A stretch of 49,509 nucleotides of DNA from Methanobacteriota archaeon. GTDB lineage: Archaea; Thermoplasmatota; Poseidoniia; Poseidoniales; Poseidoniaceae. The DNA lies in the NCBI GenBank assembly GCA_009936765.1, contig JAACDL010000033.1:1-49509 (forward strand). Direction: 5' to 3'. This document shows, in pieces, positions 39,868 through 48,960 of the stretch; the first letter of the stretch is position 1; every line of letters begins with the position of its first letter. A program made the translations under genes and the position numbers. Under the pieces are notes generated by a model. It was not told where the DNA came from. It made no database searches and worked only from the letters and a program-made list of their open reading frames with translations.

Positions 39868-41270
39868 ACATGATTCCTGATGATGCTGTTGAGAGACTTA
39901 TGGAGTCCGCACTACTGATTGGTGCTGAATGTGAAAAAGCAAATATCCAGCAATGGGAAATTTACGCTAACCAAGGATACGGGCACTCGATGGAAATTGA
40001 GGCAGGTAGAATATCGATGGCATCCGGTGGAGGAGAAGGCGGATTTGGAATTAGAGTCGTTGAAAATGGACGTTATGGATACGCACATTTGGTAGATACT
40101 AGTTCTTCCAAAAGAGCGATTGAGCAAGCACTTAGCATTGCTAACCGCTCTCCATCAATCGAAGGATTTGAGCTACCGGGCAATCAGTCTGCATCCAATG
40201 TAGGTGGAATGAAAGACAAAGCGATTCTCGATATGACTCCAGAAGATCTTTTGGAACAAGGTGACCAAGTGCTTACTAGGGTCTCAGAACTTGATTCAAG
40301 GGCTGTAGCAGTAGGTGGAGGTATCGGAGTAGGGGCAGGCGCTGGAGCAATTGTTACTAGCAATGGAATCGAATATGGAGGAGTATACACATCTCATGGC
40401 ATAGGAATTCATGTCTCGATAGATGAGGACGAACAGCTGACTTCTTCTTACGAAGGAGAATCTTCGCGTAAACTTCTATCCGATGTCACGTCAAGTGTCG
40501 ATAAAGCGGTTCACTGGTCACAAATTACTCGAGAAAAAATCCCTGGTGGTGAAACAGAGGATTGCCCCGTGCTGATGACATCAGACGGCTTTTCACCTCT
40601 TTTCTCAGTAGTTGTCCCTTCCGCTGTAAAAGGAGAACGATTAGCACGTGGCGAATCTTTCTGGTCTGGGAAAATGAATCAGATGGTAATTGCAGATCAC
40701 CTGTCTCTTACCGATGATGGATTGATGGAAGGAGGTATGTCTTCCGGTTCTAGAGACGATGAAGGAGTACCATGTCGCACTCAGAAGATAGTAGAATCCG
40801 GTCGTCTAACTGGAGAATTATGGTCCACCAGAGACGCCGCAAAATCAGTTGCTGAAGGCAAGGTAGACTCTGCTGAATCAACAGGTTCTGCATCTAGAGG
40901 CGGACACACTTCGCCTCCATTGTGCGGATGCAATGATTTGATTCTTTCATCATCAGCAAAATCTCATGATAGAGACCGACTGATTGAAGAGATGGATAAC
41001 GGATATATCGTTCACAGTGTAATGGGTGCACATACAGCAAACCCAACCAGTGGTGACTTTTCAGTAACAACCTCAACAATATTGAGAGTTGAGGGAGGAA
41101 CTGTCATCGGCGCTATTTCGCAAGCTGGTTTGTCAGGCAACATGGCTAAGGCTCTGAACGGCAGAGTAGTTCTAGGAGATTCATCAAAACGCAAGGGTTC
41201 TTACAGTACCGGCTCGATGCATGTCCCAGATGTTCTACTAATGGACGGACTGAGGATAAATCCTGCTTGA
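39864..41270 (+). CDS. pmbA: PmbA/TldE-family partner of TldD
   Basis: Same fold family but without HExxxH. GDFSVTTS...GG.VIG.I block. The start overlaps the tldD stop (ATGA at 39864-39867). Confidence 0.8.
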   Translation: MNMIPDDAVERLMESALLIGAECEKANIQQWEIYANQGYGHSMEIEAGRISMASGGGEGGFGIRVVENGRYGYAHLVDTSSSKRAIEQALSIANRSPSIEGFELPGNQSASNVGGMKDKAILDMTPEDLLEQGDQVLTRVSELDSRAVAVGGGIGVGAGAGAIVTSNGIEYGGVYTSHGIGIHVSIDEDEQLTSSYEGESSRKLLSDVTSSVDKAVHWSQITREKIPGGETEDCPVLMTSDGFSPLFSVVVPSAVKGERLARGESFWSGKMNQMVIADHLSLTDDGLMEGGMSSGSRDDEGVPCRTQKIVESGRLTGELWSTRDAAKSVAEGKVDSAESTGSASRGGHTSPPLCGCNDLILSSSAKSHDRDRLIEEMDNGYIVHSVMGAHTANPTSGDFSVTTSTILRVEGGTVIGAISQAGLSGNMAKALNGRVVLGDSSKRKGSYSTGSMHVPDVLLMDGLRINPA

Positions 41271-41282
41271 ACTGTTTAGTTT

Positions 41283-41301
41283 CAGTTTCTTTGCGAAACT
41301 G
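41283..41301 (+). terminator. Hairpin CAGTTTC-tttgc-GAAACTG within a T-rich tract just after pmbA
   Basis: Perfect 7-bp inverted repeat inside gtttagtttcagtttctttgc (three TTT runs), 13 nt after the pmbA stop. Archaeal terminators are typically oligo-T. Calling it a terminator is an inference. Confidence 0.35.
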
Positions 41302-41451
41302 GCAGACATCTTCATGAACCGTCTCCAACGAACATCTAACTCCACGGAGGTGAAAGGGAGTGTCAGAAGAACTCAACCAGCAAGCACGAAAGCCCGAACA
41401 CCCGTCCTACGACGGGCCTGAAAATGAAATTGGACCGTCGAGGTGTTCATA

Positions 41452-43149
41452 ATGTCAGATTATGAAGCACATGTATCTGAGGTCATAAAACAAGTCCCGG
41501 AAGCTGATCCTGAAAAGGTGGCTGAGGCTTTTGCAAGGTATGAGAAAGATTTCTTGATACCACCAGAAGATGCTATGCGTTCAGTACTAAGAAGATTCCA
41601 ATCAGACACAGGAGTTGCTCAGCCAAGCAATGTCCAATCTAACAATACTCAAAGACAGTCTGCACCAATCAAAAAAGCAAGTAAATTATCAGAACTAACA
41701 TCTGAAGATAGAAATGTAGAGATTGAGGTTGAAATTGTAACCCATAACCCAAGGACTACAATGGTACGAGGAGAAGAAAAGATTGTCCCATACGGACTAC
41801 TGGAAGACCAACCATGGTCAGAAGGTGGAGATAGAACAAGATGGGAATTCAAGGACTGGGGTAACAACCCGAATATTGCTCCCGGTGCTGTAGTAAGACT
41901 AGAAGGGGTTTCAGTCAATGAATATCAAGGCAGAATGAGCCTTAACATCAACCAAGCGAGCCGAGTTGTGGTACTTCGTGAAGGTGAGAGAACTGTCACC
42001 ACTCCTGGTGAACCTGTTGAGATTAACAAGATCAAAAACCCAGGTAATGCTACTGTCGTAGGGAGACTATTGGCAAGTAGAAAGGACCAGATTCATCGCA
42101 AAGATGGCTCAGGTTCTATAGACATTGTAAGAGGCCGCATTGCAGATGACACCGGCGCTATTGGATTCCTTTCATGGGAATCTTTTGACCATGAAATTGG
42201 AACATTATTGAAATTTGAAAATGCTCAAGTTAAGGTATTTAGAGACACTCCGGAGATTAACATTGGTACATCCACAAGAATCGAAGTATTCCACGATTCC
42301 AATTTCGCATCAGCAGATGACTTAGTGGCACGTTCAGTCAGTAAGATTGAAGATTTAAGAGACGGTTCAAGAGATGTAGAAATTATCGTAGAAGTCCAGA
42401 AGATGATTAGAAGAGATTTCAAAGGTAAAGATGGAGAAGACAAGAGCGTATGGTCAGGAGATATCGCAGATCCTACTGGGAAATGCCGATGTTCTATTTG
42501 GTCCGAGCCTCCATTTGACTTCGAAGCAACTCCAGTTGTTGTAAGATTGCGAGGAGTAAGAGTTAGAGCATGGCAAGGAATACCCGATATTACAATTGAC
42601 GATGTATCACAAATCGAGATACTCGCAGCAGCTCCTTGGGGCGATGATGTAGACTTGACTAACAATGTGGTTGATGTCCCTCTAACTGACCTTGCAACAG
42701 GTGCAAGCCGGGTAGGAATATCGACAACTGGGCATGTAATTTCCATCAGAGAGGATTCTGGAATAATTAGCCGGTGTACGGAATGTCGTCGCGTTTTGAG
42801 GGATGGTGAATGTGCAACTCATGGAAAGCAAGATGGTAATTCTGATGTTAGAATTCGAATGGTACTCGATGATGGCAACTCAACAATATCGCTGATTATT
42901 AACAAAGAGGCATCTGAATTACTGATCAATATGAATCAAGAAGCCATAACTTCTCACATAAATGAAAATGGTACTATGGCTTTCGTACAGGAACTTAGAG
43001 AAATGTTGCTAGGACGCCAACTAAAGGCATCTGGCAGAACAATAGTGGATGAACAAGGAGCAATGCTTCTATCTGACGCAGTAGAATTAATGGATGTTGA
43101 TTCTGCTTTAGTTGCTGCCGAACTAAGAGCAAAATGGGGAGTGGTTTGA
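41452..43149 (+). CDS. rpa: Replication protein A (multi-OB-fold ssDNA-binding protein with zinc finger)
   Basis: Four OB-like blocks (e.g. VVRLEGVSVNEYQGRMSLNI, IVRGRIADDTGAIGFLSWE, SGDIADPTGKCRCSIW...VRLRGVRVRAWQG). Zinc finger CTECRRVLRDGECATH. The ATG at 41452 lies 7 nt after GAGGTG (track start GTG at 41443). Confidence 0.85.
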   Translation: MSDYEAHVSEVIKQVPEADPEKVAEAFARYEKDFLIPPEDAMRSVLRRFQSDTGVAQPSNVQSNNTQRQSAPIKKASKLSELTSEDRNVEIEVEIVTHNPRTTMVRGEEKIVPYGLLEDQPWSEGGDRTRWEFKDWGNNPNIAPGAVVRLEGVSVNEYQGRMSLNINQASRVVVLREGERTVTTPGEPVEINKIKNPGNATVVGRLLASRKDQIHRKDGSGSIDIVRGRIADDTGAIGFLSWESFDHEIGTLLKFENAQVKVFRDTPEINIGTSTRIEVFHDSNFASADDLVARSVSKIEDLRDGSRDVEIIVEVQKMIRRDFKGKDGEDKSVWSGDIADPTGKCRCSIWSEPPFDFEATPVVVRLRGVRVRAWQGIPDITIDDVSQIEILAAAPWGDDVDLTNNVVDVPLTDLATGASRVGISTTGHVISIREDSGIISRCTECRRVLRDGECATHGKQDGNSDVRIRMVLDDGNSTISLIINKEASELLINMNQEAITSHINENGTMAFVQELREMLLGRQLKASGRTIVDEQGAMLLSDAVELMDVDSALVAAELRAKWGVV

Positions 43150-44091
43150 TTGCAGCCAGAGAAGAGAGCTAGAAGGCAGCCTGCTTGGCACATGCTAGCA
43201 TCAGAATTTAGTGACTCGACATTACACCAGCAAGGCTCCGGTGAATTCGACCCACTATTTGTCATCACAAAGTTGGGGGCTAAAGTGAACCGACTAGTAG
43301 TGGCTGGACTTCTTGAGAGATTAGAACCAAGAGAAACCTCGAATGGGGCAACTCTATGGCAAGGCCAACTAAGAGATCCATCAGGATTACATTACTTCTC
43401 AGTTGGAGATTATGCACCAGAGGCAATGCGTGAACTAACTGTCCAATTAGCATCAAGAATTGATGATGGAGAAACTGTCATGCTGATAATGACTGCAAAA
43501 GCGAGATATTTCCAAAATGATGAGGGAGCAGTATACACTAGCCTTCGCCCAGAAGAGGCCGCCGTTATTACCAGGTCGAATTACCGAAATTGGCTAGTAA
43601 AGGCAGCAGAGGGACTACTTGAAAGAATGGATGCTCATGATAAATCCTCATCTCTTGAGCAAAACCTCCAGTCTTTAGCTTCTGCAGGAATACCAGAAAA
43701 CCTTCGTGAAGGTATTTTGCTTGCACACGAGCATTATGGTGAAATAGACTTGGAAACTTATAGACTCAATATCATGCAAACACTGGATATTGCAGAAGAC
43801 AAGATGCCAACAGCAACTGCACCTAAAGCGCCAACTCCACAAACCAGTTTGGATGTCGCTGATGAATCATCAGCAGCAGATAACGCAGGTGGAGGGACCG
43901 ATTTGAAGCAAGTTATGCTCGACTTAATTTCTAGGTTAGATCAAGGCGAAGGGGTCGATTTTGACACGCTTCTCTCTAACGCTGCAGCAAGAGGGCATGA
44001 TAGAGATGCTGCTGAGTCAAGCTTAGATGATTTGTCAGAAGAGGGCACTGTTCATGAACCAAGATTTGGATGGTTTAAGATAACAGTTTGA
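43150..44091 (+). CDS. rpap: RPA-associated protein (Rpap, COG3390-type OB-fold protein)
   Basis: AWHMLASEFSDSTLHQQGSGEFDPLFVITKLGAKVNRLVVAGLLERLE resembles the N-terminal block of haloarchaeal Rpap proteins. It immediately follows rpa (0-nt gap, TTG start), as in rpa-rpap operons. Confidence 0.6.
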   Translation: MQPEKRARRQPAWHMLASEFSDSTLHQQGSGEFDPLFVITKLGAKVNRLVVAGLLERLEPRETSNGATLWQGQLRDPSGLHYFSVGDYAPEAMRELTVQLASRIDDGETVMLIMTAKARYFQNDEGAVYTSLRPEEAAVITRSNYRNWLVKAAEGLLERMDAHDKSSSLEQNLQSLASAGIPENLREGILLAHEHYGEIDLETYRLNIMQTLDIAEDKMPTATAPKAPTPQTSLDVADESSAADNAGGGTDLKQVMLDLISRLDQGEGVDFDTLLSNAAARGHDRDAAESSLDDLSEEGTVHEPRFGWFKITV

Positions 44092-44152
44092 CCACTATTA
44101 CTCCAACAGGTTGAAGTTCTGTTCGCGTCCTCATCAGTTTACAGGTGAGATT

Positions 44153-44506
44153 GTGGCAGGAACTGATTTCTTTATCCGCCCAGCAAGTGGGACATCTAGT
44201 ACCGACTGGCTTAGGCTTCCAGACGCAGATATTAGTGTTGTAATTACTAGGAGGATTACACGTACAGTTCTCCATGGAGGAGAGGGTGATGATCTTGTAG
44301 ATGAAGGCGCAGAGTCGGCTGTATACACTGTTCGTGGCGAAATGAGCCACGATGAATACAAGAAAATCTTGAAGATGTTCAGAAGTGGACAACCATACAT
44401 TCACGATCCTTACGAAGAAAGGGATGTGAAAACCGTTTTTGGTAGAATTGAATATGATGGTTCCAAGAACACTTACACATTCGAATTTATTGAAGATATA
44501 CGCTGA
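44153..44506 (+). CDS. Orphan small soluble protein (117 aa from GTG 44153; 131 aa if TTG 44111)
   Basis: The GTG at 44153 lies 4 nt after AGGTGA, the same geometry as the gyrB start. No TM segment, no class III signal peptide and no recognised motif. Two antisense track ORFs cover the same DNA but lack SD or operon context. Confidence 0.45.
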   Translation: MAGTDFFIRPASGTSSTDWLRLPDADISVVITRRITRTVLHGGEGDDLVDEGAESAVYTVRGEMSHDEYKKILKMFRSGQPYIHDPYEERDVKTVFGRIEYDGSKNTYTFEFIEDIR

Positions 44507-44516
44507 GGTGCAGTAG

Positions 44517-45089
44517 ATGAGGTCATTGGATGAGTCTAGAGAAATACTCTATGTCATCAGAACTTTAGATGTCCTAATGGGCTCAGGAGTAGGTCTTGAA
44601 GCAGCAATTCATTCAATATCCCAAGGAGGATATGGAATTATTTCGAAAGACTTTGCAGTATTGATGGAGAACATCAACAAAGGAAAGCCAATGGAAAGAG
44701 AACTCCGTGCACTACTGAAGAAAGCTGAAAATGATGGCTACAAAAGAGTCATCAATACAATGCTCAACAATGTAACACAGAATACTGACATTATCGAAAC
44801 TTTGCGTAAGCAAGGCGAAAGGATGGAAGAAACTCGTACTGAGGCTGTGAAAGAATATATCGAAGAGCTTGGAGGAGTCCCTGAAACTCTTCTATCCATC
44901 GGAATGATAGGACCTATTATTCTATCAATTCTAGGAATTGCACCACAACTGATGGAAGGCGCTGAAGAATTGTTTGGAACAATGAACCAAGGCACGATTA
45001 TGACCATCGTTAATGCTGGACTATTTTTTACATTGGCAGGGATGGCAATGATTGGATTAAAGGCCCACACAAAGGACCCGGGGTTGTGA
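44517..45089 (+). CDS. Half-size type IV filament platform protein (single T2SSF domain, TadC/EpdK-like)
   Basis: A cytoplasmic helical bundle (LYVIRTLDVLMGSGVGLEAAIHSIS...INKGKPMERELRAL...) followed by TM segments gives a single-T2SSF-domain layout. SD GAGGTG lies 6 nt upstream. Confidence 0.6.
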   Translation: MRSLDESREILYVIRTLDVLMGSGVGLEAAIHSISQGGYGIISKDFAVLMENINKGKPMERELRALLKKAENDGYKRVINTMLNNVTQNTDIIETLRKQGERMEETRTEAVKEYIEELGGVPETLLSIGMIGPIILSILGIAPQLMEGAEELFGTMNQGTIMTIVNAGLFFTLAGMAMIGLKAHTKDPGL

Positions 45090-45093
45090 TACA

Positions 45094-45825
45094 ATGATTT
45101 TCGGTATTCTTGAGATGTTTAGAAATGAACCACTTTTGTTGTTCATAATAACTCTAGGAGTTGCGTGTGCTATTGGTGGCATACCACCTATTATTGAGAG
45201 GCAACGTAGAAGATCTATTGAAAATGACCTCCCTGCTTTACTCGAAGCTTTGTCAGATTCACTAGGAGCGGGTTTGGGACTTCAACAAGCAATGATGGCT
45301 GAAGCCGACAGGAACAATGGGAAATTAGGCAAAATGCTAAAGGAAACCTTAGCAGAAAGTCATGCATCAACTTTCGATGCTGCACTTTCAAACTTTGCAA
45401 CTAAGTCTCGTTCATCCCAGGTTCAAAGAGTAATGCACCTTATTTCAACTGCTATAGAACAAGATGCTCCGTTGAGGAACATCTTGGCCGACATGTCTAG
45501 AGACTACGAAAGGTTGAATGATTTAATGAATAGAAGAGAATCTGATTTGATGGGTAGATCTATTCTAATTATCATGTTCGTTTCTGTAGGACTTCCTTTT
45601 CTAATTGCATTCATTGTTGGCCTATTCGCACCAAGAAGCCAGGGATTCCAACTTGAAGACTTCAACTCATCATTCACTATGTTCTTCGGAGCAGCATCTC
45701 TTGTTGCGATTGGAGTTAGTGGAAGAATGCTGGGTAGGATGCGCTCAGCACTATGGTGGGCACCATTATGGATGGCAGTTTCTATGACTATCTATCACGT
45801 TGGAGTTCAAGTAATAGGAGGTTGA
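45094..45825 (+). CDS. Half-size type IV filament platform protein (single T2SSF domain, TadB/EpdJ-like)
   Basis: N-terminal TM, then the helical T2SSF core (DLPALLEALSDSLGAGLGLQQAMM...APLRNILADMSRDYE), then 3 C-terminal TM segments. 4 nt after the previous gene. Confidence 0.6.
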   Translation: MIFGILEMFRNEPLLLFIITLGVACAIGGIPPIIERQRRRSIENDLPALLEALSDSLGAGLGLQQAMMAEADRNNGKLGKMLKETLAESHASTFDAALSNFATKSRSSQVQRVMHLISTAIEQDAPLRNILADMSRDYERLNDLMNRRESDLMGRSILIIMFVSVGLPFLIAFIVGLFAPRSQGFQLEDFNSSFTMFFGAASLVAIGVSGRMLGRMRSALWWAPLWMAVSMTIYHVGVQVIGG

Positions 45826-45829
45826 ATAA

Positions 45830-47065
45830 ATGGAAAAAATATTGGATCAATATGGAAGAGTCACAATCTACATGGAAGGAAATCATCCAGCACCTATGTA
45901 TCACGTTGATGGAGGTGTTGAACCCAATCCATATGGCAATCTGGCAGCATTACTCGAGGATGACAATCTGGAAGAAGTGATGTACAATGGAGGCGCACAG
46001 TGCGTTAAAGTTGCTCATAGAGATCACGGCATGTGTAGAACAAATGTTTGGGTTGATGACCAACAAGGTATTGAAATTTCAAAGAATATCGCTGCATTTA
46101 CATCTGTACCCCTCGGAGATGGCCCCGGAATGGTCCCCATTTTCGATGGCAGATTACCAGATGGTAGCAGAGTAAACGGCACAATACCTCCCGTATCCCC
46201 TGACGGACCGACTCTTACTATTCGTAAATTCAGAGAAGACCCGCTAACAATGATTGATCTGATTAAGTTTGGAACTGTAAATCTTAGATTAGCAGCAATG
46301 ATGTGGGTTTGGATTGAAGGATTGGACAGTAGACCTGCAAATTTCGTCATAGCAGGAGGAACTGGTTCTGGAAAGACCACTACTCTGAATTGTCTTGGAA
46401 TGTATATTCCTTGGCACAAGCGCCTCCTGACAGTAGAAGATACTGCTGAATTACAAGTCTACCATGATCACTGGCTGCGAATGGAAACACGCAGAGAAAG
46501 GCCTGATGGAACACCTGCAGTTGACATGAATGATTGCCTGAAGTCTAGCCTAAGAATGCGACCTGACAGAATAATTGTGGGAGAAGTTCGTTCTAGCGAA
46601 GCTGCAACTTTACTTACCGCAATGAATACTGGTCACGATGGTTCATTCGGTTCTCTGCACGCAAATACTGCAATGGAAACAATAACCAGGATGATTAATC
46701 CTCCAATGAATGTACCACCGATTATGCTAACTGGTCTTGACCTGATTATTATTCAGGCCAGACTACACGTAAACGGTAAGACTGCAAGAAAAATTACTGA
46801 AGTTGCAGAAGTTGCCGGTATGGAAGGAGATAAGCCTAGATTGAATGCAATATGGAAGTATAATGCTGCAACAGATACAATCGAGGAAACTGGAATTCCC
46901 TCAAAGATGCGAGAAACTATTTGCAAAGCAGCAGGGATTACTCCTGCTCAGTTCGAGCAATACGTAACACAGAGAGAACAAATTCTTGCTGATCTAATTC
47001 GAAGAGACATTAGAGACATTGAGACTGTTACTAAAGTCATCCAAAGTTTCTACGCCTCTCGTTAA
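45830..47065 (+). CDS. Type IV filament / type II secretion family ATPase (T2SSE; CpaF/TadA/EpdL-size, no long FlaI-type N-domain)
   Basis: Walker A AGGTGSGKTT, Asp box VEDTAEL, Walker B RPDRIIVGEVR, His box TGHDGSFGSLHAN. SD GGAGGT lies 7 nt upstream. Confidence 0.9.
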   Translation: MEKILDQYGRVTIYMEGNHPAPMYHVDGGVEPNPYGNLAALLEDDNLEEVMYNGGAQCVKVAHRDHGMCRTNVWVDDQQGIEISKNIAAFTSVPLGDGPGMVPIFDGRLPDGSRVNGTIPPVSPDGPTLTIRKFREDPLTMIDLIKFGTVNLRLAAMMWVWIEGLDSRPANFVIAGGTGSGKTTTLNCLGMYIPWHKRLLTVEDTAELQVYHDHWLRMETRRERPDGTPAVDMNDCLKSSLRMRPDRIIVGEVRSSEAATLLTAMNTGHDGSFGSLHANTAMETITRMINPPMNVPPIMLTGLDLIIIQARLHVNGKTARKITEVAEVAGMEGDKPRLNAIWKYNAATDTIEETGIPSKMRETICKAAGITPAQFEQYVTQREQILADLIRRDIRDIETVTKVIQSFYASR

Positions 47066-48777
47066 TCGTTTGAAAGATTCAGACGAGCAAGTAATTCGTC
47101 AACACCATCGATTTTAGTTCTTAGTGAGTTGACTCTATCAGAAGCATCTGCAACAGATTCTGCTAATTCCAGATCATCATCCAAGACCTCTTCGTCACCA
47201 TCGGTGCGGAATTGCTGAGCAAGTCTCTTCAAATCTGAAATTATTGAATCGACCTCGGTGTCTGATACTTTTATTCCAGGAGCAATTCTTGGAATTTCCG
47301 AAGGCGAAATATGCCCTAATTCTGCCCCAACGACTCCAGCCGCAGCGACTACTCTCGGCCTTAATTCAGCATTATTGACTGCATATCCTTTCTTTTCAAG
47401 GAATCTGATTACTAAAGTCTGCTCTGTGTCACCATAATGGCCGCCTGCCTTCTTCAAAACGGCTTCAACTAATTGTTCAAAGCCATCTATATTGCGTTCT
47501 AAACGATCTAGAGTTCTTCTTTCATTAGGCTGCAAGTGGATAGCACCATGTTGTAACAATCTTGCTACTCTAGTTCTTCTAGCGGTTCTAGGATCACTTG
47601 CTGCAATTTCTTCATCTAATGAGATTTGTAAATCAAATAGTGCGTGTATTCTACCCGAAACTGAAGGTAGGCTCATGTCCAAATACAATTCTCTAGCCTT
47701 TTCTTCAAATGCCATTCTAGCTTTGACCATGTGGCCGTCATGAGATATTATCAATTCAGGAAGAGCATCCCTAAGCAACTCTCTTGCTTCCTCGAAATGC
47801 CGCAATGCTTCTCTTTCTCTCCAGGAGTTTGGCATTTTATGCATAGCATCTTTTTCTGCTTTGGCTATTGCATCGAGAGAATAAAGTCTGGCCTTGACAT
47901 AATCTGCTGCGTTTTCATCATTAACTGGCAAGCCATGTCTTCCAAGGCTAGAAATGAATGCATTTACATCTTCAGAGTCATCGATTGAACCAACTAAAAG
48001 ATAATCTCGGCAAAGGGCATCTATCTCTGCAGTTCTACCCTCAATCTCGATTACAGAAGCCGTTATTTCAACAACTGGTGCAACTGGGGCAACTGCCGAA
48101 ACTACCACTGTAGGAATTGTTTCCACGGCAGTTGGAGGGGAGATATCGATTATCTCGACTTCATCTTGTTCAACTATGTCCTCTATTACTTCGATTTGAT
48201 TTGATTCAAGAATGACCGTTGGTCCAGCAACTTGTTGAATCTCAACAACCGGTTTGACCACTGCTTCATATTCATCGGATGGTGAAGGAATTGTAACTGC
48301 TTTTGGTTTACCTCTAGGTCTTCGCAAACTTTTCTTGATTGACCCCCAAGAGCCCGATTGAGATGTTAATACTCCAGCAACCCTCATCAGTAGAGCTTGT
48401 TTTGTCCCAGAACGTGGTAGGTCTAATTTAGAGCACAACTCATGAAGTTGATCTCTTGAGAGAGTATCTAATTTCTCAGGAGTTAATTGCTTAGCATCGT
48501 GATTGAGGTGCAAAAATAGACGTTGCCTCCTCTCTCTAATCGAACCAGATTTTTTGACCCCAAAGACTGCTAAGACATCACCTAATTGGTTATTTAATAT
48601 GGAATCTATACCATCTGGAGTTAAATCCCACTCATCTAAAACGAGGTCTGCAATCAGTTTAGCGCGTAGTACTTCTACGGAACCATTTCTAGAAAGTCCG
48701 TGCCCTGCACAGATTTCTTTCAGGCGGTCTAACCTAGCCTGATGAAGTTCAGAAAGAAGGGTTTGCTTGTCGTTCAT
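47062..48777 (-). CDS. Protein with three tandem SAP/HeH-like motifs and an AT-hook-like RRPRGKPK, plus a long helical C-terminal region of unknown function
   Basis: LKEICAGHGLSRNGSVEVLRAKLIADL, LAVFGVKKSGSIRERRQRLFLHL and LHELCSKLDLPRSGTKQALLMRVAGVL fit the SAP pattern (L..L....GL...G.K..L+.RL). The ATG at 48777 lies 6 nt after GGAGGT (the track start at 48831 is TTG). Confidence 0.55.
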   Translation of the reverse strand: MNDKQTLLSELHQARLDRLKEICAGHGLSRNGSVEVLRAKLIADLVLDEWDLTPDGIDSILNNQLGDVLAVFGVKKSGSIRERRQRLFLHLNHDAKQLTPEKLDTLSRDQLHELCSKLDLPRSGTKQALLMRVAGVLTSQSGSWGSIKKSLRRPRGKPKAVTIPSPSDEYEAVVKPVVEIQQVAGPTVILESNQIEVIEDIVEQDEVEIIDISPPTAVETIPTVVVSAVAPVAPVVEITASVIEIEGRTAEIDALCRDYLLVGSIDDSEDVNAFISSLGRHGLPVNDENAADYVKARLYSLDAIAKAEKDAMHKMPNSWREREALRHFEEARELLRDALPELIISHDGHMVKARMAFEEKARELYLDMSLPSVSGRIHALFDLQISLDEEIAASDPRTARRTRVARLLQHGAIHLQPNERRTLDRLERNIDGFEQLVEAVLKKAGGHYGDTEQTLVIRFLEKKGYAVNNAELRPRVVAAAGVVGAELGHISPSEIPRIAPGIKVSDTEVDSIISDLKRLAQQFRTDGDEEVLDDDLELAESVADASDRVNSLRTKIDGVDELLARLNLSND

Positions 48778-48960
48778 TTGCATACCTCCATTATGCCTCC
48801 ACTCCTCTCCATATTTGAGGTTGCACCCCAACGAATGCCATTAGAGGCTGATTATTGAAGGGTAATTTTGCTGTCATGGCCCCTACGGGGCCGAGAAAAT
48901 AGGGTGATTAAGGGCAATACATTCAAACCTCTACATCTCCGAGTGATGTGAGGGAGATTG

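Follow-up and report, generated by a model that had tools for sequence, protein, structure and literature searches.

A fixed gene block in Marine Group II archaea sets an RPA pair beside a minimal Epd/Tad-type assembly core

INTRODUCTION

Why should the genes of a single-stranded DNA (ssDNA)-binding complex stand directly ahead of those of a type IV filament motor? The question is raised by a 49,509-nucleotide (nt) contig of the archaeal order Poseidoniales (Marine Group II, MGII; contig JAACDL010000033.1), which belongs to a metagenome-assembled genome, was taken at its full length, and is called the window hereafter. On its plus strand, at positions 41452 to 47065, lies a block of six genes: rpa and rpap, which encode the ssDNA-binding pair, a small gene called X here, two genes for T2SSF platform proteins (F1 and F2), and a T2SSE ATPase gene. 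An earlier note on this DNA had described six co-directional genes with very short spacings and a convergent SAP-domain gene at their end, a description that agreed with our open reading frame (ORF) map at every coordinate, and had suggested that the ssDNA-binding pair might be coupled to a membrane translocation motor.

Surface oceans hold MGII archaea in great abundance, none of them in culture, and the block may bear on their DNA exchange, particle attachment, and regulation of replication proteins. Its components are all of known kinds. Our literature search found no paper on a fixed rpa-rpap-X-Epd/Tad core arrangement in MGII or on the X family, and RPA goes unmentioned in the archaeal type IV pilus neighborhoods of Makarova et al. 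(PMC4858521).

RESULTS AND DISCUSSION

The block is fixed across Marine Group II

Two recognizable modules are joined in the block, and their arrangement is real and constant throughout the order MGII. Loci were collected by scanning GTDB species genomes with an ATPase alignment, by a metagenome scan, and by exact-protein look-ups, and those whose ATPase reached at least 70% identity were taken as MGII type (n = 88). This sample spans the Poseidoniaceae (MGIIa) and four Thalassarchaeaceae-type (MGIIb) ATPase lineages. The order rpa-rpap-X-T2SSF-T2SSF-T2SSE was complete in 72 of the 88 loci, and each incomplete locus ended at a contig edge. The synteny is thus kept in every Poseidoniales locus examined, about 90 in all, in both families and with no exception.

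We favor, with moderate confidence, an explanation in which two adjacent, possibly co-transcribed modules have been neighbors since the MGII ancestor and do not form one machine. The first module, rpa-rpap, would have a promoter region to itself and be expressed by way of a conserved, structured leader, and its products would serve general DNA replication, repair, and recombination. The second would consist of X and a minimal Epd/Tad-type assembly core, F1-F2-ATPase, which would probably assemble a pilus from pilins encoded and processed elsewhere; X itself would be a small cytoplasmic protein of tail-tube-like fold with an invariant acidic hairpin tip. Pilus function, co-transcription, regulation by the leader, and independence of the modules are all things that we infer.

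The sister order, Marine Group III (MGIII), provides a first argument. Its ATPases form the nearest clade outside MGII (about 54% identity), and in all of the 30 MGIII loci F1-F2-ATPase was kept, with none of rpa, rpap, X, or the SAP gene within 10 kb; the trio has pyruvate phosphate dikinase or a membrane protein on one side and a PurM-like gene on the other. The link between this ATPase and rpa, on which the earlier suggestion depended, thus holds in every complete MGII locus and in none of the 30 MGIII loci, and the independence of the MGIII trio from rpa argues for two modules.

The extent of the synteny argues in the same direction. Upstream, the flank varies, with pmbA in all MGIIa loci and a divergent AstE-like gene in MGIIb. 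Downstream, the synteny common to MGIIa and MGIIb runs on through the SAP gene, a gene of ~345 amino acids (aa), and a polyprenyl synthase gene. Because it extends to unrelated genes, pmbA always upstream in MGIIa included, conserved adjacency is not specific evidence of function here, which again favors the two-module explanation. The caveat already attached to the earlier suggestion, that adjacency is weak evidence, is well founded, as polyprenyl synthase and, in MGIIa, pmbA are syntenic too. There is a caution of method in this: compact genomes keep the synteny of unrelated genes across families, so that adjacency alone says little.

RPA and Rpap form a euryarchaeal-type pair

The first gene, rpa (41452-43149), encodes a 565-aa multi-OB, zinc-finger, RPA1-like ssDNA-binding protein. 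It matched the NCBIfam model PRK07218 (E = 3.9e-79) in three stretches within aa 196-558, under the equivalog cut-off, as well as PRK06386 and PRK07217 (E about 1e-39). A zinc-finger motif C-x2-C-x8-C-x2-H (CTECRRVLRDGECATH) is visible in the translation and falls within the stretch aligned to these last two replication factor A models, as in a DBD-C-like domain, and PDB matches place OB folds at aa 201-291 and 298-390. The earlier label of a four-OB zinc-finger RPA is sound as to the RPA identity, the zinc finger, and two PDB-matched OB folds; the count of OB folds is three or four.

The second gene, rpap (43150-44091, gap to rpa of 0), encodes an RPA2/RPA32-like partner. Its in-frame ATG at 43192 (residue M15) is an alternative start and is the start of many database homologues (298-300 aa). 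The C terminus of Rpap matched Pfam RPA_C (aa 227-301, E = 1e-3, just under the gathering score), and the top PDB matches were all Pyrococcus abyssi RPA32, with an E value of 0.03 for the single sequence and of 0.002 for a profile including MGIIb. With this profile the alignment to P. abyssi RPA32 took in the beginning of the OB fold as well as the winged helix at the C terminus, and an MCM winged-helix domain was matched too. In the N-terminal OB-like region, a short segment aligns to RPA32 and the AlphaFold2 (AF2) confidence score (pLDDT) is below 50; the sole confident part of the model is a helix-helix-helix-strand-strand module at aa 250-313 (pLDDT about 80). The model is poor overall (pLDDT 51) because the alignment was shallow, and it was left out of the fold search; the best 120 matches of the Rpap homology search were all close MGII relatives.

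Across 44 loci, rpap follows rpa directly (gap of 0 to -4 nt) in all but one, L062, whose 457 nt are probably an artifact of alignment or start calling. No second RPA-like match was present in the ~2 Mb of retrieved loci, which is weak evidence. By sequence, RPA and Rpap are an RPA1:RPA2-like pair of the usual euryarchaeal kind. MacNeill 2021 (PMC8329085) concluded that Rpap proteins are orthologues of RPA2, with genes that stand beside zinc-finger RPA genes in haloarchaea, Methanosarcina, and Ferroplasma, and rpa-rpap adjacency is the norm in Euryarchaeota, including in the Thermoplasmatales member Ferroplasma (PMC8329085, PMC3376784). That such pairs are self-sufficient elsewhere in Euryarchaeota is a further argument for two modules.

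The likeness to the rpa1-rpap1-rpe and rpa3-rpap3 loci of Haloferax and to the pairs of Ferroplasma and Methanosarcina lies in a zinc-finger multi-OB RPA gene followed by the gene of a winged-helix, putatively OB-bearing, RPA2-like partner. What comes next differs from the Haloferax operons: X and a type IV filament core here, a calcineurin-like phosphoesterase after rpa1, and nothing after rpa3. In Haloferax volcanii, the phosphoesterase is found only in the rpa1 operon, and rpa3-rpap3 is without it (Stroud et al. 2012, PMC3376784), so that the presence of a phosphoesterase, given earlier as a general trait of haloarchaeal rpa-rpap operons, holds for rpa1 and not for rpa3-rpap3. The third gene of our block is not of the rpa1-rpap1-rpe kind either, as X matched no phosphoesterase family and has a predicted beta-sandwich fold.

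F1, F2, and the ATPase form a minimal Epd/Tad-type core

F1 (44517-45089, 10 nt after X) encodes a single-T2SSF-domain inner-membrane platform protein of the TadB/TadC/EpdJ/EpdK type and matched nearly the full Pfam T2SSF domain (E = 2.9e-11). F2 (45094-45825, gap of 4 nt) encodes a second one (E = 4.4e-10), which aligns to the C-terminal halves of the NCBIfam platforms UpsF (281-436 of 484) and ArlJ (208-386 of 465). The ATPase gene (45830-47065, gap of 4 nt) encodes a 411-aa CpaF/TadA-like type IV filament assembly ATPase. It matched Pfam T2SSE (E = 7.7e-42) and, in NCBIfam, FlaI (5e-74) and TadA (1.5e-59), both under the curated cut-offs (202 bits versus 373 for TadA); its best PDB relatives were CpaF (2.5e-62) and Archaeoglobus GspE2 (2oap, 3.9e-62), with FlaI behind (6.5e-44). 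Pfam and NCBIfam thus uphold the family calls made earlier for RPA, Rpap, the two T2SSF proteins, and the T2SSE ATPase and leave X without a family.

Two contiguous single-T2SSF platform genes followed by the ATPase gene are a hallmark of Epd-like pili and of Tad (Denise et al. 2019, PMC6668835), and the same platform-platform-ATPase layout occurs in clade 1 of Makarova et al. 2016 (PMC4858521). On domain content and gene order, the trio is a minimal core of Epd/Tad type, with a split platform and a CpaF-like ATPase. It resembles the Methanococcus maripaludis Epd core (EpdJ, EpdK, EpdL) and the bacterial Tad core (TadB, TadC, CpaF/TadA) in its two single-T2SSF platform genes with the ATPase gene next, CpaF being the best solved relative. 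It differs from them in that no pilin, prepilin peptidase (EppA), FlaH/TadZ-type ATPase, or adhesin gene was found in the block and its neighbors, in that the trio stands alone in both MGII and MGIII, and in the unusual conservation of its ATPase. Where a FlaH/TadZ-like secondary ATPase could follow the main one, there is the convergent SAP-domain gene, and a simple pattern scan of the window ORFs of at least 50 aa returned no pilin-like class III signal peptide. The pilus role is inferred rather than demonstrated because that scan found no pilin in the window and Pfam no pilin or prepilin peptidase in the block; Epd major pilins are typically encoded by stand-alone genes elsewhere in the genome (PMC4858521).

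The ATPase is the most conserved gene of the block, and its identity falls from a median of 86% among divergent MGIIa to 73-74% for MGIIb and about 54% for MGIII. In divergent MGIIa, the medians of RPA, Rpap, X, F1, F2, and pmbA span 56-65%, with RPA and Rpap both at 56%, and the SAP protein stands at 48%. This sharp difference in evolutionary rate between the ATPase and the RPA pair is another reason for separating the modules.

Such constraint is unusual for a pilus ATPase in a trio that has no nearby pilin gene in either order. Some variants of the trio and of its setting were also seen. In MGIII, the trio keeps a conserved setting of its own (L016:5238-12201 and L032:4778-12213), where genes for pyruvate phosphate dikinase and a small membrane protein precede it and PurM/AIRS-family and aconitase-sized genes follow. 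An MGIII-type metagenome contig (L007:2575-3510) carries a second ATPase-like stretch (54% identity, 316 aa) between F2 and the full-length ATPase; it overlaps a called minus-strand ORF and may be a partial duplication or a pseudogene. In another Thermoplasmata metagenome-assembled genome (L041:2623-5211), an ORF of 862 aa ends in the homologous ATPase region (52-54% identity), which a long extension precedes on the N-terminal side, and the surroundings yielded no homologue of F1 or F2.

The spacer between rpap and X

The spacer between rpap and X (44092-44152) is the only internal gap of the block long enough for a promoter. Of 44 loci, 41 have a spacer of 54-62 nt; automatic start selection made the two genes overlap in L043 and L047. 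An alignment of 40 distinct spacers revealed a conserved box on the plus strand at 44101-44119, about 40 nt upstream of the X start (CTCCAACAGGTTGAAGTTC in the window, MGIIa consensus CCAACACATTCAAgT), with a Shine-Dalgarno-like AGGTGAG further on at 44143-44149. This box could serve X-F1-F2-ATPase as a promoter or operator inside the block. The conserved length, the box, and the Shine-Dalgarno-like sequence are compatible with a second promoter, and this too led us to the two-module explanation. No T-run terminator occurs at the block junctions, the only two runs of five or more T being both inside coding sequence.

X is a small MGII family with a tail-tube-like predicted fold

X can be read from a GTG (44153-44506, 61 nt after rpap, 117 aa) or from a TTG (44111-44506, 19 nt after rpap). 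We prefer the GTG because most homologues have 117 aa, the alignments start at residue 15, and AGGTGAG lies 3 nt upstream of it. X has no family in Pfam or NCBIfam; a word-index search found 178 homologues, and exhaustive phmmer only 59 cluster representatives. In the AF2 model (pLDDT 85.8), X is not an OB fold but a beta-sandwich that carries a single helix and a long beta-hairpin, and the hairpin tip bears an invariant acidic motif, GGEGDDLxDEGxES.

The top Foldseek matches of X in PDB and BFVD were tail-tube, Dit, and baseplate-hub proteins (E about 2e-5 to 1e-4, query-normalized TM-score of 0.5-0.6; E of 2e-5 to 1e-3 and TM-score of 0.45-0.69 at the widest), a modest fit with an identity of about 6-18%. 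The predicted fold thus resembles that of a phage tail tube or baseplate hub, a resemblance of fold only. The predicted beta-sandwich, long beta-hairpin, and single helix are shared with tail-tube, Dit, and hub proteins of phages, tailocins, and contractile injection systems (monocin MttP, diffocin, the TP901-1 major tail protein); X differs from these by its lack of sequence similarity and of viral context, its chromosomal position fixed across the order, and its invariant acidic hairpin tip. No relatives of X were found in the viral contigs of IMG/VR, and no locus examined had viral or contractile injection system neighbors. With no IMG/VR relatives and a chromosomal site fixed across the order, a viral or prophage remnant is ruled out.

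A metagenome scan seeded with the most distant X relatives brought out ~45 loci in which a homologue 42-55% identical to the window X is on its own, the other five genes all being absent from the surrounding 8 kb (L094-L132, L136, L141, L142, L149, L151, L160, and L165; for example, L103:7980-8402 and L126:8001-8405). By their source names, these loci belong to MGII (MED-G38, Thalassarchaeaceae, Poseidoniales), with GC contents of about 36% and 52%, and identity comparisons suggest that the stand-alone genes are a paralogous lineage. Inspected gene by gene, seven of them had housekeeping neighbors (aminoacyl-tRNA synthetases, acyl-CoA dehydrogenase, DEAD helicase), with a convergent gene after X in six and a pair of membrane-protein genes ahead of it in two. 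X is thus an MGII-specific small family, tied obligatorily to neither module, since it has stand-alone paralogues, and the presence of these in housekeeping contexts is one more point for the two-module explanation. A role of X as an obligatory linker of the modules, which was also considered, is weakened by the same ~45 loci.

The gene pair ahead of some stand-alone X genes (L093:3633-7960, L116:5915-7984, and L126:5802-7979; duplicated in L093) encodes a multi-pass membrane protein of ~445-477 aa and a protein of ~245 aa with one N-terminal hydrophobic segment. Neither matched a Pfam or NCBIfam family, and the pair may be the real functional partner of X. Many stand-alone X genes have a distinct and strongly conserved box of their own (GTTGATTAAT; GCAATGTTGATTAATTG) about 25 nt before the ATG. 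Neither this box nor that of the rpap-X spacer could be shown to be a general MGII promoter element; a ATTGATTAAT-like sequence, considered as a candidate general MGII promoter motif, has one exact intergenic copy in the window, and its near-matches are mostly in coding DNA. In one lineage (L130:~1390-1480, L131, L132, and L149), stand-alone X is directly downstream of an apparent tRNA 3' end (…GGTTCGAACCCTGGCGGGACTACCA).

A candidate cis-regulatory RNA precedes rpa

The pmbA gene stops at 41270, leaving a spacer of 181 nt ahead of rpa, which the earlier note had taken for the second-longest gap of the window, with a T-rich tract that would set the block off as its own unit. The spacer is T rich right after pmbA, without any run of at least 5 T, and it ranks second or third on a crude ORF map. 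The block does appear to be a unit apart from pmbA, as the upstream gene of MGIIb is divergent and a conserved leader moves with rpa.

This pmbA-rpa spacer is among the best-conserved stretches of the region and presents in turn an invariant core, a compensatory hairpin, the Shine-Dalgarno sequence, and the start codon. The leader element itself extends over 41346-41421 on the plus strand. Its core, of ~47 nt, follows the pattern GGAGGU..AAGGGAGUGU..AACCA..GCACGAAAGCCCG; one copy is present in the window (0 expected) and one per locus in 34 loci, all MGIIa. After the core comes the hairpin (41402-41417, CCCGUC-cuac-GACGGG), whose sequence varies among loci; it was found at the same site in all 22 distinct leader sequences, with at least 9 different stems. 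A covariance model of the element, R1, gave one match per MGIIa locus (61 matches; 40 bits and E = 2.9e-7 in the window), always upstream of rpa (for example, L084:2291-2362 and L087:5522-5593), and no match in the MGIII or X-only loci searched. Compensatory changes affect 6 of the 6 hairpin pairs (28 cells), a level that 0 of 500 shuffles reached and from which slid controls remained far, in an alignment that was itself fitted to R1. Both helices of the core are invariant, so that covariation neither backs nor contradicts them. RNAalifold on a MAFFT alignment missed the hairpin, its arms being out of register, and the covariance-model alignment was needed.

A related core and hairpin were seen upstream of rpa in MGIIb, in copies that R1 did not match at E ≤ 0.01, and because the upstream gene is divergent there, the element belongs to rpa. 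That rpa has its own conserved leader is the last of our arguments for two modules. Rfam returned nothing at E ≤ 1 in 41200-44200 and nothing at the gathering score across the whole window. A small ORF in the spacer is ruled out, as the conserved blocks show no third-position wobble and the window indels break the frame relative to other loci.

The rpa leader is, from its clear covariation, a candidate for a new cis-regulatory RNA. One subgroup has the 5' arm of the hairpin repeated right beside the Shine-Dalgarno sequence, and the Shine-Dalgarno region of the window is paired in the minimum-energy fold, which suggests that the leader may control rpa translation via alternative pairing. Some ssDNA-binding proteins, such as that of phage T4 gene 32, have autoregulatory mRNA leaders. 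The likeness lies in a conserved structured 5' leader before the gene of an ssDNA-binding protein, with sequences that can pair near the ribosome-binding site; the rpa leader differs in that there is no experimental or sequence relationship to gene 32-type leaders and that covariation backs the hairpin only. Our literature search, which was not aimed at such a leader, found no description of one of this kind ahead of rpa.

Two modules or one system

Several observations weigh against the two-module explanation. The six-gene order is steadier than chance juxtaposition alone predicts, and it survives both the changed upstream flank and, in one lineage, a changed downstream flank. The gaps are tiny and conserved across MGII loci (-1, ~58-62, ~10, ~4, and ~3 nt), and a single transcript is plausible because no junction has a T-run. 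The MGII trio has genes of DNA-binding proteins on both sides; no pilin was found in the 49.5-kb window and, by Pfam on the block proteins, neither a pilin nor a prepilin peptidase in the block. Moreover, M. maripaludis requires both Epd pili and an OB-fold protein to be transformed (PMC10133366).

The six genes could instead form a co-regulated regulon without physical coupling, answering for example to DNA damage or to cell-cell contact and DNA exchange, with a logic analogous to that of the UV-inducible Ups pili of Sulfolobales. We hold this to be unlikely, while giving it real weight: one promoter region and a regulatory-looking conserved leader stand ahead of a block that has tiny gaps and no T-runs at its junctions and is retained while its flanks change, and well-characterized cytoplasmic proteins in type IV pilus loci may belong to larger regulons (Makarova et al., PMC4858521, section 17). 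However, the linkage is dispensed with in MGIII, the trio may have a promoter of its own in the spacer box, and the very high conservation of the ATPase suggests a constitutive rather than a stress-specific role.

A DNA-handling membrane machine, as first suggested, would have the core drive DNA uptake or export, RPA and Rpap coat the cytoplasmic ssDNA, and X act as a ring or adaptor at the ATPase and platform. Such a machine seems distinctly improbable to us, and we put its most specific form, the recruitment of the Epd/Tad core, the RPA1:RPA2-like pair, and X into one operon-encoded apparatus that hands ssDNA to RPA at the membrane, at the low end of that estimate. The exceptionless, order-wide linkage with its tight conserved spacing would fit it, as would an MGII-specific X located right at the module junction with a predicted fold used by tube-forming proteins and a usual downstream neighbor encoding a SAP-domain, presumably DNA-binding, protein. 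The orthologous MGIII trio stands against it, being without rpa, rpap, and X in 30 of 30 loci, as do the X paralogues alone in unrelated contexts, the synteny that reaches unrelated genes, the modest fold match of X (TM-score of 0.5-0.6, about 10-18% identity), and the rpap-X box, which may divide the transcription unit in two. Both RPA and Rpap resemble the canonical cytoplasmic RPA1:RPA2 pair; no membrane anchor was noticed in their translations, in which no search aimed at anchors was made. Pfam and NCBIfam found no channel, nuclease, DprA/ComEC-like, or pilin gene in the block and, among the seven proteins of the block and its SAP-domain neighbor, no DNA channel or transporter (ComEC-like, or a TctA-like/OB membrane pair) or DNA receptor. 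Order-wide adjacency speaks for coupling of the ssDNA-binding pair to a translocation motor, and we found nothing independent of adjacency that does.

The closest precedents for such a machine come from systems in which a type IV filament is tied to DNA transfer, namely, the Ups pili of Sulfolobales with Ced and the Epd pili of M. maripaludis, which act with a TctA-like transporter and an OB-fold membrane protein. There, epdJ, epdK, and epdL, of the same split-platform subtype, and a membrane-anchored OB-fold protein are required for natural transformation (PMC10133366), which bears out the premise that type IV filaments are needed for transformation in some methanogens. In contrast to the MGII block, the link in these systems is genetic or functional rather than an operon with RPA, and their OB protein is membrane anchored; the block also has no transporter or Ced-like gene.

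Finally, that X is a third RPA subunit, analogous to RPA14 in the Pyrococcus RPA41/32/14 complex, with genes 1 to 3 as one module and 4 to 6 as another, is very improbable: the order of a large subunit, an RPA32-like protein, and a ~115-aa protein does recall three-gene RPA operons, Rpap does match Pyrococcus RPA32, and X is in every MGII cluster, but X has stand-alone paralogues far from rpa, is only 10 nt away from F1 while the one sizeable spacer keeps it apart from rpap, and its confident AF2 model, a tail-tube-like beta-sandwich with a long hairpin, rules out an RPA14-like OB fold.

What the block means

An invariant, order-wide block that joins an ssDNA-binding complex to a type IV filament core is a testable hypothesis. 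Were the block one apparatus, it would be the first gene-level archaeal competence or DNA-transfer machine outside methanogens and Sulfolobales, and this in a very abundant surface-ocean group; interest would be high only if functional coupling were demonstrated. Were the link only positional, as the two-module explanation would have it, three elements would still be of value: a minimal and extremely conserved Epd/Tad-type trio that MGII has in common with MGIII, a new family of small proteins whose predicted fold is tail-tube-like and whose acidic loop is invariant, and a candidate cis-regulatory RNA in the rpa leader.

The SAP-domain neighbor

The gene downstream of the block lies on the minus strand (47062-48831), convergent to the ATPase gene, whose stop it overlaps by 4 nt, and encodes a 589-aa protein. 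Of the three SAP motifs and the AT-hook-like motif attributed to it earlier, Pfam scored one SAP domain (aa 121-151, E = 1.6e-5), and two more SAP-like repeats and the AT-hook-like RRPRGKPK are visible in the translation only. The protein is a conserved neighbor, not a demonstrated part of the system. Its gene is convergent to the ATPase gene in three MGIIb lineages and wherever the flank of an MGIIa locus is long enough, and in the P0089 lineage of MGIIb (L177) it is replaced by other genes.

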